64,000 bases of DNA from Heterodontus francisci (taxonomy: Eukaryota). Under the pieces are notes generated by a model that saw only the letters and a program-made list of their open reading frames with translations, searched no databases and was not told the origin of the DNA. Made by a program: the position numbers and the translations under genes. The stretch spans positions 74,696,078 through 74,760,077 of the forward strand of contig NC_090372.1 of NCBI RefSeq assembly GCF_036365525.1, in the 5' to 3' direction. Every line of letters starts with the position of its first letter. Within the stretch, counting starts at the first letter, position 1. Below, one piece after another: positions 3,609-63,841 of this stretch.

Positions 3609-6600
3609 GTAAGAAAAGCCGCAGGATTAAATACCCAACAGCCAGGACCTAAACGGTTAAAGGAATGGTGTTTGTGTAGCGTCGCTCCACTGTGGAAAAG
3701 GAATCCGGTATTCCTCTCGAGTGTCTGCTGTAGCATTGTGTGTGAGCGGCGTTTTTTTCAAGCATAACTCGATGATATGTAGGTCGGAAAAGCTATGCAA
3801 AGCGAGTCTATGATGTGTCAGACCACTTCGTGCATTTTAATGAAAGAAAGTACAGGTAACTGCTACATTTCATTCAGGCATGGGATAGCCTGTGCATATT
3901 ATGAACTGATTCTACCCTTAGTGCTAATCCGTGCAACGTAATTGAAGACGACCCTCAAAACAAAGGGTAAAATGATTGATTGGATTAAGAGTTTTATGAT
4001 GTAAAGATTTGTATTTAAGTTGTGTGTGATATGGTGTGGGCTTGTAAAGGGAGGCGCCATGCCTTCACTGTGCAATAATGTCACAAGGAAGCGTGCAACA
4101 GCCTATCAAGGCCTGGCCTTTGCCTGTCCTCCGGTTTCTAGCTATTGGCATGGAAATGAGCAGCCTCTTCAATCGAATACAGGCTGGCAGGAGCATCCCC
4201 TCACTATAGGGTTACAGGCAGCCAAAGAGTCTTCTGTATTATATTGGCTGCCTGCCTTTATTCTGGTTGCAGCGGGAATCAGAGATTTTTTCCACACAGA
4301 TATGAATAATAACTCCCCTTGGCTAAGGCATAATGTAACCAAACGTGGTCGATTGGAAGGCGCTGCCGCCCATCTGTCAGCTTCCTGTAGAGTTCTCTCC
4401 GAGCAGTCAGGGTCGGTGCTGATTTGAGATCTATCTTTTGCACATTACAGAGTGACGTGGCTCAGGGTTAGATACAGTAATTTACTCGGATTAATTAATT
4501 ATGACAAACAGTGGATTACGGTCCTACTGTAAGCAAGCATTGCGGAATGGCGACCACACGTGGAACTTAGAGATTATTTCGGTTTAGATTTAGGCTTTGT
4601 GAAATTTGACAACTAATTCATGAAAGTAAATGTCCGACTAAGGTTTGTGAAATATTTTGAGTGAGTCTTCACAAATCACTTAACTGTAGTATTCCACAGC
4701 TCTTGAAGCGGAAATAGCTGATTATTGTTCTTTGTGGCCTGTGTGTGTTTTAATTATTAAACGGACTTCATGAGATTAGCAAAAATTGTCCAAAAGAAAA
4801 TGTAACAGGAGTGTTTTTTTTTCAATATATACTTCTGACCAATGGAACTTCTATCGACTGTACAGAATATGATGCTTTTACTCCGCGACCTATCTATCGA
4901 CTGAAGCTCAGTAAAGCTCCAGTTTTAACTCTCCAAGTCAGTAATACACTTAAGCAGACAAAACAAACACAGAAATGAATTGCAATTCACTCGGACAAGC
5001 ACAGGAAACCTTTTTGCAGAGTATAAAACATCTTTCGTTTCTGTGTGCTGTACCCTGAAAATTTATTTTTTTTCGCCTTGTATTAGACGGCAATTAGAAA
5101 TCATACTTTAGTGCATTTCCCCCTCTTTCCATATGCTCGTAAATTAGAACAAATGAACAGCTTCACTGTAACAATCCGCTCCGCCATCTTTATTTCCTGG
5201 GTCTGAACATTCACTGTAGCGGAAACTGCCCGCTGAAGAAATCTGGATTGGATCTTTTTTTAAAAAATGTCTTTAGTACTTTTCGGTTTGAATTCTGCAA
5301 AAAAAAACTCCTCCCTTCCCCCACTGGAATGCTTTCCTTAAAGTAGTTTTCCCAACTATCCCGTGAAATATCTGTATCTTTCCCCGCAACCCGTAAACCA
5401 AAGACTGACTTTTAGTATTTTAGGGTGGTTGCGGTCGCCATGCGCCATTGAGAATGGCCTGAAAGCCTGCGGTGCTGAGTAACCGGGCTTTCGGGGTAAA
5501 AACACATCTCCCAGTAAGCTGCCCATTATGTCATGTAAAGACTTGGTTAATAACGACAGGTTATCGACAATGTGTCACTATTTGCCCGTGCGGTTTGCTT
5601 TTAATAAGGAAGTATCGCTTTCCCGATACACAATACAGCAGCCTGATAAAGAAAGTAATAAAAACGCCTTAACACAAAACCAGTAATACAATGTGCAGTA
5701 AAAGTCCTTCCTATTATTTCCCTGCTTAATGATTAAACAATTGGAACTCCAGTCCAACAGTAACATCGTTGTAAATCCTTACGTGGTAAGTCCCAATTCG
5801 AACTGAGTGTCAGCAGCAGCAATAGAAAGCGCAGTGCTCTTTATAAGAAACAGTGAAAATGAATTACGACTCAACGCCTACAAGTTTCAAGCTGACAGGG
5901 GTTCCCCGGTCCAAGCAAATACGTAAGATGTTTTTTTGTTATGTACTGCTGCGATTGATCCATTTGATGACATTCTCATTCATAAAAGGGATTTGATTTA
6001 TGAGTTTGGGAAGAATTACCTCCAGAACCGTTCCTGTCACTGCTTACGCAGAAGCCCAACGTGTTTCAAACGACAACACAAACACATATGCACCGCTAGT
6101 TTCTGTTGAATCGAAATAAGTATTACAACAAGTTCTTCGGGGGAGGGAGCCTAGAGGGAGAGGAGGTGTTACAGGAGGATTAAAAGAGAATGGTTGCCTA
6201 AAAATCCTCATGCACAATAAGGATGCATTCCTACAGCTGTTATTTCATTTATACATATAGTAATGCACTAAACGCCAGAATATGCCTTGTGTTTTTATAA
6301 AAAGTGGGCCAAGATTTGAGATCATGTTTTCTGAAGACTTTTTCAAAAGGAAGATTGTAGCAAATTAAACATTTGTGCTGAATAGATTTTTGAAGAACCA
6401 CACTGACGCTCTCTCGAGCTCGCTTTTTTCTTTAAAATGTTGTGACTCTTAATTAAATAAAATCGGTTTTCCATATTACATTTCTAATGTACGATTTCTT
6501 AGTAAAATAATAAACTGCGTGATAATGCGGGAGTTTCTTAGGCCCAGCTGTTTTTTTTGTTGTTGAAAAAAGCAGGTTTAACGGCGCATGACGCAGTGAA

Positions 6601-13322: not shown

Positions 13323-13987
13323 ACCCTGTAAAAGCGCTTTGATCTTGTTTAACCATTCAATGTAAAGAAGTGCAATATAAACCATTTTACTGTTCCTCGC
13401 AAGGAAAAATAAAGCACGAACAAATTCACGTTTAAGTAATTTTTAGAAAATTTGTTCATATACCCTGTTCCATAAGAGTAGAAGATTATATATGCAAAGT
13501 TCTGTAAGCCTTAGTACTTCACTTCTACTACTGAATGCTAAGGCTGGTGTCCATGAAAACAACCACTAACCAGAGACAGAGCAATGCAAGCAAGGATCGG
13601 TTATCGATAGGTACATTACATGTAAACTATAAGGGTTGATACTAAATCAAAAAAGGAAGAGGGGGAAAGAGGGAATGTAATCATAGATAACATGACAAAG
13701 CATGAGAAAGTGATAGTCCACCAGGAGCTAACTGGTCCATTACAGATGGGTCAGCTTGGGAGCTTCCTGAATTCTTCCCTGAGACGGATGGTGCGAAGAA
13801 AGGTCTGTGTATGTGGGATGTGGGTCGCAAGGTCCATGGTGATGGTTGCTGGTCATTGGCCCTGCACCATTATAGTCCATGTTTCCAGAGGGAGGATGAC
13901 CGAGGTGGGTTAGGCTGAAAAGGGAAGGCCCAGAGCTCGGCATGGATTCCACAAAGTTTCCTCCAACATAGACTGGGCTACCCTGTA
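13323..13987 (-). promoter_or_regulatory. miR-10 target sites in hoxa3 (two in 3'UTR, one in CDS)
   Basis: On +: ACCCTGTA 13323-13330, TACCCTGT 13461-13468, TACCCTGTA 13979-13987. Confidence 0.75.
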
Positions 13988-14512
13988 AATGAGGAGTCCC
14001 ATAACCGCCATTGCCTTGAAGAGGATGCGTGTCATATTCAGGCGTCACAGCTGCCGTCCCAGCATACCTCTTCTGTGGAGGTGGGCAACTGTTTAGAGGC
14101 CCAGGATAAGACGTAGGGATAGCATAGGCGTTTTGATGAGGTTTGCTGAAGGACGTAGGCGAGTGCGGGTCGTATGGAGCACTGGTTGCCAAGGAATGCA
14201 TAGAGTTTGCATATCCTCCTGCAGCTGATGGTGGAATGGGGCTTCTGCAGGGCGACTGTCCTCCAGAGGATGTTAGCATGCCTTTCGCTTTCTGATCCTT
14301 TTTGTATTTCATTCTGCGATTTTGGAACCAGATTTTAATCTGTCTTTCAGTGAGGTTTAAGAGGTTGGCCATTTCGACCCTTCGAGGCCTGCAAAGGTAG
14401 CGGTTAAAGTGAAACTCCTTCTCCAGTTCCACCAACTGGGCACTGGTATATGCTGTGCGTGCCCTCTTGGAGGCTGGGCCCGGAGGACTTTTTTCTCCAG
14501 CCGAACTTTCAA
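13740..14512 (-). CDS. hoxa3: Hox-A3 coding exon 2 (homeodomain)
   Basis: Acceptor TTTACAG|TT; [38 protein letters not shown] and PG3 C-terminus [13 protein letters not shown]; spliced 410 aa. Confidence 0.97.
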
Positions 14513-15318
14513 CTGTAAATAAAGAAAACAATGATTAAATCTATTCATAGGCGTAATAGATGTTGAAAATAGGAAATATATATTATATAATTAACTCTAT
14601 GACATATTCTAATGTATTCTCAATAAGTTACGTTAACATATTAACCCCTATCATTAAAAGATTAATGGCTCATTCGCCATCTCCAAAAAACACAATTGTC
14701 ACTCCTTTGCCAAATTATTATACTTAGTAATGGAGGTATAACCATGCATAAGCCATTACTGGGTATTTCATTATTTAATATTGAAATCTAATGATTTACA
14801 TTTAATAAAGCAAAGCAGTCTTTTATTCAAGTACACCATTGAAATGAAATCCGAAACTACACTTTAAATTACATTGTTTAAAAGTTATTGCATCTTATTT
14901 TTTTTATCAGAACAATTCCAATAAAGATATTACGTTTTGAATCGGTCATGCCAAAACGATGCGCTAATTTGACCCAAGATGCAATCAGTAGAGCAGCCTT
15001 TTTAAAAAACCCGATGCACACCAATAGCATTGAATTGCCAAATTATACACATCTCTAATCATAGTCTTCGGGTATTACTTAGAAATGAAAACCGATTTCT
15101 TGTTACTTGAGCTATTTTACATACCGATACAAACAATCCACTTTGCAGTGCCCTTCCCCCCATTCCAAGGATTCCACTTGTTTATGTCACAATAGTACCA
15201 AACATGGTGAGAAAGATCATTTTCAACCGATTGGGTGATAACTAAGAAAACATTTTGAGCTATTTTATTATATGTTAAATATAAGTGATGATAATTCAAA
15301 TTTATTTCATGATTTTGA

Positions 15319-15596
15319 AATAAAAACAGAAAATGCTAGAAATACTCAGCAGGTCAGGCAGCATCTGTGGAGAGAAAAACAGAGTTAACGTTTCAGGTCT
15401 GTGACCAATCATCAGAACTGGGAAAACCTAGAGATGTAATAGGTTTCAAACAAATGAAAGGGGGAAAGGTGGGAAAAAGAACTTGCATAAAATCAATGTT
15501 TCTCCCTCCACAGATGCTGCCAGACTTGCTGAGTATTTCCAGCATTTTCTGTTTTATTTCAGATTTCCAGCATCCGCAGTATATTGCTTTTGCATG
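15319..15596. mobile_element. Short Penelope-like retroelement remnant (inverted pLTR fragments) in the hoxa3 intron
   Basis: About 65-bp inverted arms (15316-15381 and 15497-15561; 5 substitutions plus 1 indel); flanking direct repeat ATGATTTTGA (15309-15318, 15597-15606); internal hammerhead core. The arm sequence resembles an abundant shark/ray repeat (recall). Confidence 0.75.
15383..15419 (-). ncRNA. Minimal type I hammerhead ribozyme motif (possibly degenerate)
   Basis: Minus strand reads AGTT-CTGATGA-TT-GGTC-ACA-GACC-T-GAAA-CG-TT-AACT: both catalytic boxes, stem II, stem I AGTT/AACT and palindromic AACGTT in place of stem III. Confidence 0.65.
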
Positions 15597-16151
15597 ATGA
15601 TTTTGAGTCATGTTAACACCTGCAATCATGATTTATATGAAATATATAATTTCTATAACATTTATTGAAATTCCTCATAAACATATTCTGTGTCAGTACA
15701 AGCATGTCTGTATTTGCAACTGAAGCCCACAAATGCAAATCTGATATCTAAATATTAAGAAATCATTTCGACTAGTACAAGCAGTTCATGCCTCCAAATC
15801 CAGTTATCACTAGTTGATATTTTATTTTTATCAATCAGAATTGTGCGTGTGCATATTTTTCCATATTTGCACATGAGCAATAGTGCAAATCCAATCACAT
15901 ATGCATTGGTTATTAAAACTGAAAATTAGGTGAAGATTATCAGTTCCTCTCCAAAAACCTGGCCCTTAAGATATGTTTAACTATCCATAGGTCGAATATA
16001 GGTACGTTACCGAAGATTTATATGTGCATGTTATATAATTATATATATCTTTAGATCTATATAATTATAAACGTATACAAAAGCACTTAATACATAGCTG
16101 GTGTAATTTAAGTAAATATGGAGCTAGACTGGAGGAACTTTGTATGTATGT

Positions 16152-16260
16152 GGAAGAGAAATGGGAATGAGGGGAAGAGAGAGGGAAAGAGAGGGAGAGA
16201 GGTGAGGCACGGAGAAGGAGGGAGAGAGAGGAGAGGGGGGAGAGAGGGAAGAGGGAAAGG
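16152..16260. repeat. Polypurine (GA-rich) low-complexity tract in the hoxa3 intron
   Basis: About 110 nt of almost only G and A on the + strand. Confidence 0.85.
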
Positions 16261-16551
16261 CTGAGATGCACTCTCTCAACTGTTTCCCGGTAATGTGTAT
16301 TTTAAATTGCCTAACCTACATTTAGAAAATGTTAGTGTTTATGTTTATAAACTACTTGCCTAATCACTGACAATGGCCCATACGTTATTTCTATGACAGG
16401 GTTCCAGAATTATTGAAATGATTCAGTTGTTCAGATTTTTTAGAGATGAAGGCAATGACTATGCTGTTCCAGTAGCTCAATTATCAACTTTACCCACTGT
16501 AGCAATGACATGTCGATTGATTATCGAAAGGTAAGATAGGACGCTGTGTAC

Positions 16552-17011
16552 CTGAACTGGAACTGCTGGTTTTTTGCTTGGCGTTTTGGCGCGACTCTTT
16601 CATCCAGGGGAATATTTGTTTACTAATGGTGGCTTGTGAGGTAAGTGTAGGGTTTTTGCTTGTGCTGGACTGGGTCGAGTTGCTGCTGGTATTTTGGGGT
16701 GGTGAGACAGATGGTGGTGGTGGAGGTGGTGGAGGTGGTGGCTGCTTCTGTTGCTGTTGCTCTGCAATAACTGGGTGGTGGCTCGGTTGACTGGCACTGG
16801 TTCGCATGCAACTTTCATTGATATCGTTGGGTTTGTGATGGGGGACAGTGCCCGGTGATTGCAGAGAGCAGGCAGGCCGATGATAGTCGCTTTCCACGTG
16901 GGACGAAGGCGGATATTGCTGCTGACTGGCGTTGTAGTTAAAACCATTTGCTCCTTGGTATGTGTAACCACCGAAAATTGCAGAGCTGTCGTAGTATGTC
17001 GCTTTTTGCAT
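16552..17011 (-). CDS. hoxa3: Hox-A3 coding exon 1
   Basis: [12 protein letters not shown] start, poly-Q and poly-P tracts, hexapeptide [13 protein letters not shown]; donor CAG|GTACAC. Confidence 0.96.

Positions 17012-26074: not shown

Positions 26075-26140
<66 letters not shown>
26075..26140. repeat. (GATA)n microsatellite
   Basis: About 16 perfect ATAG units; explains the spurious IYLS-repeat ORF. Confidence 0.97.
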
Positions 26141-48015: not shown

Positions 48016-48592
48016 CGTGACTTATGTGCAGTTTTCGCATCCAGGGGTAAATCTGAGGCTGCTGTTGTGCTGTGCTTTGCCCGTTCTGTGAACTTGGAGG
48101 GTCGCTGCTTGCCGGGGTGTCATCCTCAGTACCAGGCGACGTGCCAACCCCATCTCTACTGATGTGACTGCTGCTGCTGCTGGAATTTGAGGAGGTAGTT
48201 GGGCTTGCTATGGAGTTTTTGATTCCGTGGTGGTTGTCGCCAGCAGACGGACTGACCACGGCGGAGCAGGGCAGAGGGTCAGGTGAAGGAGAGGATGTGG
48301 CAGGTTGGTTGTACCTGGTGTCTGCTCCTGCTTCTGGTCCTGCTGCTGCTGCTGTTGTTGCTGCTGCTGCAGAGTAGCTTCGAGATCTTTCACTGGCATT
48401 AAAGTGGTTAGATGCTGGACGACTAATGCTGAGATCCATCCCATTGTAGCCGTAGCCGTACCTGCTGGAATGCATCGTTGCAGAATCCCTGTATTGCTCG
48501 CTCACCGAGCTATGATCTCCATAATTATGTAACTGGTAGTCCGGGCCATTTGGGTAGCGACCGCAGAATGAGTTTACAAAGTAAGAGCTCAT
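48016..48592 (-). CDS. hoxa5: Hox-A5 coding exon 1
   Basis: [29 protein letters not shown] start, [13 protein letters not shown]; donor ACG|GTAAAA. Confidence 0.97.
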
Positions 48593-62103: not shown

Positions 62104-63754
62104 ATGCTCTCGTAAGATCACAGAACTTGTCTCCGAAGCTGTTGTCCACAATTCCCTTCCAAATTGTCCAGTTACTCTACTTAGGTTTTTGGTTTCTTTC
62201 CAGCGGATCAGTTGCTTTTATGTGCAATGTTAATAGGTATACTTGTCGGTTTTATATGGAGAAAAGGAAACCCAGTATTTACAACAGATATACAGTCTTG
62301 CAACGATGCACCTGGTACGTTGACATTAAAGGGTTATTACAATAAAATATGTTTCTGCATTTCCGTCTGGGGTCCTTTAGGAAACATTTTCTCTAATATT
62401 AGGATATGTTATTTTCTTTTGATCTCTGGAGTCTCCTCTAGCAAGTCACAATCCTTGTGCTAAGCAGACAGGCTTTGCACCAGCGGGGGTGTTTTATCAG
62501 GAGATTATTGCACTACATTCGTCCCTCGCTCTTAAAGAAAAATCTTTGATATAAGCTGCAAAACTGTCTGCAATAACCATGTTTCCTTTACATTCCAAAA
62601 TCGAAACTGTGCGCAAATCTACATGTTCTGGGAAGCGCTTGAGATTACGCTTTGAATGCTCAACTTTTCCTACATCACAATATATCCGAAGCCGAGGTAT
62701 CAAAGATTTTACCAGACCTAACGGATGACCTTAAAATGTTGAGAGTTTAAATAAAATTTACACCATTACAATCCACAGCGAGCGGTTGTGTCGAGCAGAA
62801 GAGGCGCGTATTATATATAGTACCAACCTTTTTAAAACCATATTTTCCAGGTCTGAAAATTTCCCCACTGAAAATTGGTTACCGCTCTCGATTGCTCTTT
62901 GATTACAAGGAAAATAACTCCGATGAAAACTTGAGAAATAAAAATCGAAGGAAGGGGGAGAGTGGAACAAAATGCAATATAATTGAACGATTACCAGTAA
63001 AGTCAACGTTTCATTCATGAATTTCTAGTTCAATAATAACAAAAGAACGCTGTTAACTGAAGCCAAACGCATGCTACGAAAACAGATGCTCCGCAAAACC
63101 TCCAAAATCTTATTTTCTAATAATATGAAACAGATGTCTGGGGAAGCTGATTTTTCACTTCTATTTTGCTCTATATTTCGCCATTTCTCCGGGCTGTAAG
63201 CTTTCTCGCACAGCTGGCCTACGTGCATTGCGACTGCAGGGCCCCAGTTACACATATTTATAAATAAAATACAAATTACAGCATTTTATTGTACACTTTA
63301 ATTACTCGTGAATGTCATTGTCACCGTTAAATAAGACTTTACTAATAAAACATTGACACTAACGCACAAGGTTTATTTAGCAACAATCGCAAATGCTTAT
63401 TTTCTTTTATTACCAGGGATCTAATGATGTATTGGTCACAGCGCCATATTAACAGCTCGAACTGGGGAAAATATAGAAACAAAGAAAACGAAACATTTTT
63501 AACATGAATTAATAAATTATTATGGTTGCAACTTCAAATGTTACCGTATATTTTTTGCAACAAAATACAATTGAATCGTATGGATGGTCAGTAAACCATG
63601 GTGTCTTCATAAATCGAAGAGTTTCAAACTATGTCTTCTCATCCACAACTGGAGAACAAGGAGAATACTAAAGGAAAAACATCTGATAAATATGCAATTG
63701 CATAAAATTTCTCATTTGTGTAGAAAGATGGATAGATCGATGGGTAGGTAGGTT

Positions 63755-63777
63755 GATAGATAGATAGATAGATAGAT

Positions 63778-63838
<61 letters not shown>

Positions 63839-63841
63839 GAT
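63755..63841. repeat. (GATA)n microsatellite, interrupted
   Basis: About 21 units with two interruptions. Confidence 0.95.

Follow-up and report, generated by a model that had tools for sequence, protein, structure and literature searches.

A motif with the conserved boxes of a hammerhead ribozyme lies in the intron of a shark Hox gene, in the orientation of the transcript, and raises the question of whether it cuts the Hox pre-mRNA. Here we examine the motif within the window, which is the whole 64-kb stretch of DNA analysed. We consider it highly probable that this hammerhead belongs to an abundant and likely Penelope-like repeat family, is carried as a passenger of a fold-back insertion within the hoxa3 intron, and likely leaves the RNA uncut.

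The hammerhead motif and its host gene

Positions are those of the window.
13740..14512, − strand: hoxa3 coding exon 2 with homeodomain and DUF4074, from the open reading frame and domain matches
14513..16551, − strand: hoxa3 intron, 2,039 nt, GT..AG, host of the insertion, from splice-site reading
16552..17011, − strand: hoxa3 coding exon 1, from the open reading frame; start at 17011, GT donor at 16551
15383..15419, − strand: minimal type I hammerhead, boxes intact, first stem II pair (15407/15395) U-U, predicted cut 15387/15386

The gene is on the − strand, its GT..AG intron runs from 16551 to 14513 and exon 2 carries Homeodomain and DUF4074 matches; hence, the motif is indeed sense and intronic, as a sequence-only reading of this DNA had it. 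The predicted cut is 1,165 nt from the hoxa3 donor and 874 nt from the acceptor.

On the − strand, positions 15419 to 15383 read AGUU CUGAUGA UU GGUC ACA GACC U GAAA CG UU AACU, letter for letter as reported before. Stem I is formed by 15419-15416 and 15386-15383 (4 bp). The CUGAUGA box occupies 15415-15409 and is followed by UU at 15408-15407. Stem II pairs 15406-15403 with 15399-15396 (4 bp) and is followed by U15395, the GAAA box (15394-15391) and the GUU triplet, with the predicted cut between 15387 and 15386. Our own search thus returned the boxes, stems, triplet and cut at the positions proposed earlier. The palindrome AACGUU, suggested to replace stem III, is also present. However, its outer A and U are the core positions A14 and H17 of the established numbering, and therefore the helix able to replace stem III in the active fold is only the 4-nt ACGU (15391-15388).

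The CUGANGA and GAAA boxes, the NUH triplet, helices I and II and a palindrome in place of helix III make the motif a minimal hammerhead (min-HHR) of type I, the kind described for Penelope-like elements (PMC4209133), in agreement with the earlier assignment. The purine-pyrimidine pair 10.1-11.1 of the min-HHR is absent in the hoxa3 copy (U-U) and present in its repeat family (A-U). In the metazoan Penelope consensus it is G10.1-C11.1 (Cervera and De la Pena 2014, PMC4209133). Helix II of the hoxa3 copy has 4 bp, or 5 once the pair of the family is counted.

To estimate chance occurrence we used a type I descriptor that requires the two boxes, three or more pairs in each of stems I and II, an NUH triplet and stem III as hairpin or palindrome. 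It matches a single site on both strands of the window, 15383..15419. Dinucleotide shuffles gave any match in 4 of 300 cases and a palindromic stem III in none of the 300. The hammerhead motif is real and not due to chance. No second core for dimer formation occurs on either strand of the 64 kb, and the inverted arm described below starts after the cut site, which bears out the earlier statement that a partner in cis is missing. The Rfam check proposed with that statement turned out negative: hammerhead families are absent from the one match at the gathering score and from the 11 matches at E up to 10. A motif lacking helix III is presumably not expected to fit these covariance models.

Fold-back anatomy of the insertion

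15308..15318, no strand: left target-site duplication copy, sharing its last 3 bases with the element's short end
15316..15496, − strand: main 5′-truncated copy of the element end, in hoxa3 sense; resemblance to the family extends from 15316 to at least 15481
15316..15381, − strand: left inverted-repeat arm, 66 bp, 91% identical to the right arm by sequence comparison
15497..15592, + strand: inverted, more deeply 5′-truncated copy of 96 nt, without the hammerhead core; arm 15497-15561
15560..15592, + strand: one-sided tail of ~33 nt, ending at the family's long end (15591/15592)
15593..15606, no strand: right target-site duplication copy, containing a 3-nt tandem duplication

The motif had been placed in a repeat copy. 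This holds, but the frame of that copy, a fold-back insertion with arms, tail and target duplication, had been missed. The insertion spans about 15319-15592 and is a 275-base hairpin-shaped remnant with the hammerhead in its loop. Its main copy, ~180 nt in sense orientation, holds the hammerhead and stops at the family's short end (15318/15319). The inverted copy begins 5 nt past the equivalent of the cut site, and loose contig ends lie before 15497. The arms fold with z = −12.2. The target duplication is 10 nt exact (15309-15318 versus 15597-15606), which 59 of ~20,000 random pairs reach, and becomes 11 nt when a 3-nt slip is allowed. No empty site that would confirm it was seen among the contigs listed for four sequencing runs.

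A start of the inverted arm at the ribozyme cut was also considered and is not adopted: the arm begins 5 nt further on, and no pile at the cut is seen among the listed loose ends.

The arms differ at 15356 versus 15522, a position at which the family commonly has either letter (at 15356 the alternative makes up 41-76% of depth). This one site is a weak hint of separate template RNAs for the two arms. The 66-bp intronic helix (15316-15561, −) is a candidate for A-to-I editing or small-RNA processing, and it covers an AATAAA at 15558 of the pre-mRNA strand.

The repeat family in public contigs

Contigs of four public runs (X1, X5, X11 and X18) were aligned to 14800-16100 at 80% likeness. The data are contigs throughout, and thus depth is no copy number. 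The source-like run yielded 98,707 aligned contigs and the runs of three other organisms 7,980, 38,662 and 52,347. In the source-like run nearly all contigs lie on the element, while each flank is represented by one contig at a depth of ~8.5. The run with 7,980 contigs is RNA-like, a label that is a guess, and its cover of the intron is not evidence of expression, since contigs show neither ends nor strand.

In each of the four runs, loose ends pile at 15316/15318/15319 and again at 15591/15592. Two 3′ ends, a short one and a long one ~33 nt away, characterise the family. Depth falls steeply toward its 5′ side. No other fragments of the family were found elsewhere in the window. Pattern scans returned 16 viral and 45 metagenome loci, which are unrelated and none of which matches the element by blastn at E 1e-3, as well as 5 loci in the bacterial collection. 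The arm pattern returned 0 loci in the viral collection. The viral, metagenome and bacterial collections yielded no family loci.

The contigs also show what the family's hammerhead looks like. On the RNA strand, position 15407 is A in 75%, 72%, 80% and 92% of summed depth (X1, X5, X11 and X18), and 15408 is A in 98.6%, 97%, 87% and 95%. The family thus reads A,A where the hoxa3 copy reads U,U, and therefore the first stem II pair (A10.1-U11.1) was privately lost. This confirms the suspicion that the U-U at the base of stem II is damage, with A in 72-92% (15407) and 87-99% (15408) of family depth over the four runs. Stem II also shows a pair-keeping G-C to G-U change at 15396 (53% in X18, 32% in X11), and the loop base 15400 varies in the family. 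Changes in stems I and II were read from a per-column table, in which two-sided changes are not readable.

In X1 the hoxa3 copy departs from the family majority at no fewer than 2 of the motif's 37 positions. The corresponding lower bounds are 3 of 67 for the left arm, 5 of 62 for the stretch upstream and 1 of 96 for the right copy. By this comparison the hammerhead core appears no better conserved than the arms. The intact 13-nt core needs no selection, since about half of such cores stay intact at 5% drift. In the loose ends before 15497 in X11 and X18 the G of the palindrome is replaced by A (agreement 0.47-0.49). Such a change is expected if the CpG has decayed in many of the copies in organisms C and D; the hoxa3 copy keeps the CpG.

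Probable membership in the Penelope-like elements

Insertions of endonuclease-bearing (EN+) Penelope-like elements are described with an inverted 5′-truncated copy, a one-sided tail of 30-40 bp and an 8-10-bp duplication (PMC8557442, PMC3846280), and a hammerhead in the terminal repeat is described for Penelope-like elements (PMC8557442, PMC3846280, PMC11167929). The hoxa3 insertion shows the adjoining inverted 5′-truncated copy, the one-sided ~33-nt tail, the two 3′ ends, the short target-site duplication and a hammerhead located in the terminal repeat, in a family that is dispersed and of high copy number. Hence, by its anatomy the repeat family is likely a Penelope-like element.

The likeness to Penelope/Poseidon, Neptune and Nematis lies in the strong 5′ truncation, inverted copy, tail and duplication (PMC8557442, PMC3846280). 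Unlike the elements described there, the hoxa3 remnant keeps only the terminal 180 and 96 nt, without an ORF that would name the clade. A further close parallel is the Poseidon PAc of Anolis carolinensis (Frangieh et al. 2024, PMC11167929). Here too a hammerhead lies shortly upstream of two neighbouring 3′ ends and the target is AT-rich. The Anolis element was shown to have two start sites of reverse transcription, to which the two family ends correspond; these ends lie ~69 and 102 nt from the cut site, as against an initiation region 85-92 nt past the cut in PAc (PMC11167929). Unlike the remnant, PAc is active and has an ORF, whose ATG starts at stem II, whereas the putative frame here starts inside CUGAUGA (PMC11167929).

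This frame of 32 codons (15317-15412, −) extends from the AUG of the CUGAUGA box to the element end and may open the element's ORF. As a query the 32 residues gave 4 matches among 1.84 billion proteins, none with a reverse transcriptase (RT) or GIY-YIG domain, and a 41-residue query gave no matches. Like frames occur as spurious proteins (P0001, P0002 and P0004). Two of the four matched proteins, which are unrelated spurious ORFs running through other family copies, read LMKG against LMIG in the hoxa3 copy, in line with the family's AA. Membership rests on anatomy, because no reverse transcriptase or GIY-YIG gene is tied to the family.

Could the repeat instead be a MITE-like or retrozyme-like non-autonomous unit, moving as a whole hairpin? 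Inverted arms with a target duplication do look MITE-like, the protein searches gave no RT link, and retrozymes have been reported from one cartilaginous fish. On the other hand, unequal arms, a one-sided tail, a depth that falls steeply 5′-ward and two 3′ ends point to 5′-truncated reverse transcripts rather than to a unit whose ends are fixed. Hammerhead-bearing units in tandem, as in retrozymes, were not found, and the motif is not in a tandem array. We regard such a unit as improbable and proceed with a Penelope-like remnant, whose history may be proposed in steps, the first two by analogy with the Anolis Poseidon work.

Step 1: The element's protein would nick AT-rich DNA, and reverse transcription would start at two neighbouring internal start sites, one per strand.

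Step 2: Both reverse-transcription products would be cut short and joined head to head, with the fold-back as the outcome.

Step 3: After insertion the hoxa3 copy drifted by ~5%, which includes the loss of the first stem II pair.

Step 4: In the pre-mRNA the arms would zip into the 66-bp helix, leaving the hammerhead in the loop, in an alternative fold, and the whole would leave with the intron.

Does the motif cut hoxa3 RNA?

The hammerhead had been taken as a potential cleaver of the Hox pre-mRNA, in cis or in trans with other copies. Predicted misfolding and a drift equal to that of the arms speak against this part of the sequence-only reading. In equilibrium folding the probability that stems I and II are formed with the core open is 1.9e-2 for the bare 37-mer and 3.2e-4 within the element. 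With the family's letters in the element it is 7.2e-4; family letters are thus disfavoured too, and the model gives no means of telling live copies from dead ones. In the fold of the whole intron the arms pair at 0.96, while stem I reaches at most 0.006 and stem II at most 0.02. Co-folding of dimers gives non-hammerhead minima for the hoxa3 copy and for the family letters alike, and is therefore not discriminating. With a partner in trans, the intermolecular ACGU helix contributes −1.7 kcal/mol.

Minimal hammerheads are described as not cleaving as monomers and cleaving weakly as dimers (PMC4209133). The hammerhead of the Anolis element cut in vitro only with the element's protein; it was dispensable for insertion in vitro, and no read ends were seen at its cut site (PMC11167929). 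Help from the element's protein could override the predicted misfolding.

One may ask whether the motif cuts the hoxa3 pre-mRNA occasionally, by ACGU pairing with a family transcript or with the help of the element's protein, and so lowers or tunes Hoxa3 output. All catalytic positions and the CpG of the palindrome are intact, and the family is plentiful in the RNA-like run (7,980 contigs), so partners may exist. In vitro the protein of the Anolis element switches on its hammerhead (PMC11167929), and conserved intronic hammerheads exist in amniotes. Against this, the first stem II pair carries the private U-U, misfolding is predicted and the intermolecular helix yields only the −1.7 kcal/mol given above. 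Moreover, GUU is not among the two fastest triplets, the motif has no excess conservation over the arms, and RNA ends at the cut site were not observed even in the active Anolis element (PMC11167929). Occasional cutting of this kind is, in our judgement, very unlikely, and we give an equally small chance to any cleavage of hoxa3 pre-mRNA that matters.

RECK-type hammerheads of amniotes are likewise type I, sense and inside an intron; they are canonical, have tertiary contacts and are conserved across classes, whereas the hoxa3 motif is minimal, damaged, in a repeat and, compared with its family, not conserved above its surroundings (PMC6155905). Cleavage of hoxa3 pre-mRNA by the motif would mean a ribozyme with a Hox transcript as its target, yet the evidence argues against this. 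What we have is a genuine hammerhead of a familiar type, with slight damage, at a location that is mildly unusual. As it stands the finding has little weight: remnants of this type are very numerous, and only the position in a Hox cluster sets this one apart.

A candidate splice acceptor behind the motif

15365..15388, − strand: candidate acceptor-like signal from sequence, with a branch-like YUNAY, 15/16 pyrimidines and CAG

The passive remnant also holds a splicing-like signal. The A of the candidate YUNAY is 15385, at −21 from the AG, and overlaps the cut site and stem I. Upstream of the AG ending at 15365 there are 15/16 pyrimidines, as against 13/16 at the true hoxa3 acceptor and 10-13 at the best acceptor candidates before the seven homeoboxes. 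The intron has 87 AGs; of those that follow a pyrimidine and lack another AG close upstream, this one ranks first by this crude count. If it were used, translation would stop after 156 residues and the homeodomain would be lost. In predicted folding the mean unpaired probability of the tract and AG is 0.01 with the inverted arm and 0.51 without it.

The insertion might hence be dead as a ribozyme and still not neutral: it would have brought a strong cryptic acceptor into hoxa3 in sense orientation and survived only through pairing of the inverted arm over the tract and AG. This adds to the explanation as a passive remnant and does not replace it. The tract is the richest in pyrimidines of the ranked intron AGs and has its YUNAY at −21; the arm is transcribed first, and the arms pair at the 0.96 noted for the whole intron. 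However, the idea is post hoc, the pyrimidine count is a crude score, and fold-backs are a usual product of Penelope-like elements anyway. Among the 6 rows listed for the RNA-like run there is no pile of loose ends at the acceptor. We consider masking of an acceptor possible but on balance unlikely.

A family-wide form of the idea is somewhat more doubtful still. Here the cut site and stem I would overlap the branch point of a strong 3′ splice site, so that splicing and self-cleavage would be mutually exclusive in RNA of the element itself. In a sense copy within a host intron the acceptor would start a poison exon, and the fold-back arm left by integration would hide it. In D. virilis Penelope an intron ends beside the hammerhead, on the 5′ side of helix I (PMC4209133). 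If true, masking would link the Penelope hammerhead with splicing in a testable way, account for the fixation of a retroelement remnant within a Hox intron and predict that fold-backs are in excess among sense intronic copies across the genome. It would also be a simple rule for which retroelement insertions are tolerable in a tightly constrained gene. A literature search, with subscription papers and supplements mostly outside its reach, found nothing on an acceptor behind a hammerhead motif or on a shark Hox-intron hammerhead.

Age of the insertion and the HoxA setting

One contig of the related organism B spans the left junction (15053-15376), with 266 nt of flank and 58 nt of arm, and ends before the motif. 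The flanks of organism B differ from the window at 16 of 597 bases. As this contig crosses the junction, the hoxa3-intron insertion likely predates the split from organism B. Among the contigs listed for organisms C and D (79% and 48% of these runs), none bridges the site and no joint skips the element. In the source-like run the left-flank contig enters the arm unbroken and the inner contig has a depth of 8.0 versus 8.5-8.6 for the flanks; both fit a homozygous insertion.

The hoxa3 homeobox is the third of seven homeobox copies in the window. Rfam places HOTAIRM1 conserved region 2 between hoxa1 and hoxa2 at 5810-6026 (+, 125 bits), and hence the cluster is HoxA. Hox clusters of jawed vertebrates have few interspersed repeats (PMC2746220). 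An insertion common to organism B within a cluster that usually excludes repeats allows for selection. Rare interspersed repeats are nevertheless present in chondrichthyan HoxA, as here; an example is a piece of SacSINE1 (Mulley et al. 2009, PMC2746220). In skate HoxA a suggested stem-loop consists of two opposed repeats with many matches in cartilaginous fish (PMC2746220). Unlike the present locus, those described in the accessible text of this paper include no named Penelope-like element, hammerhead or hoxa3-intron repeat (PMC2746220). Penelope is among the repeats listed for lizard Hox clusters (PMC9498476) and for the chaetognath Hox region (PMC2997562).

Scans of the sequence for bacterial promoters and terminators and for tRNAs gave nothing informative. 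Simple repeats in the window comprise a purine-rich tract in the hoxa3 intron (16152-16256), the poly-proline codons of hoxa3 exon 1 (16712-16741), two GATA arrays (26075-26140 and 63721-63841) and a CTG array (48322-48370).
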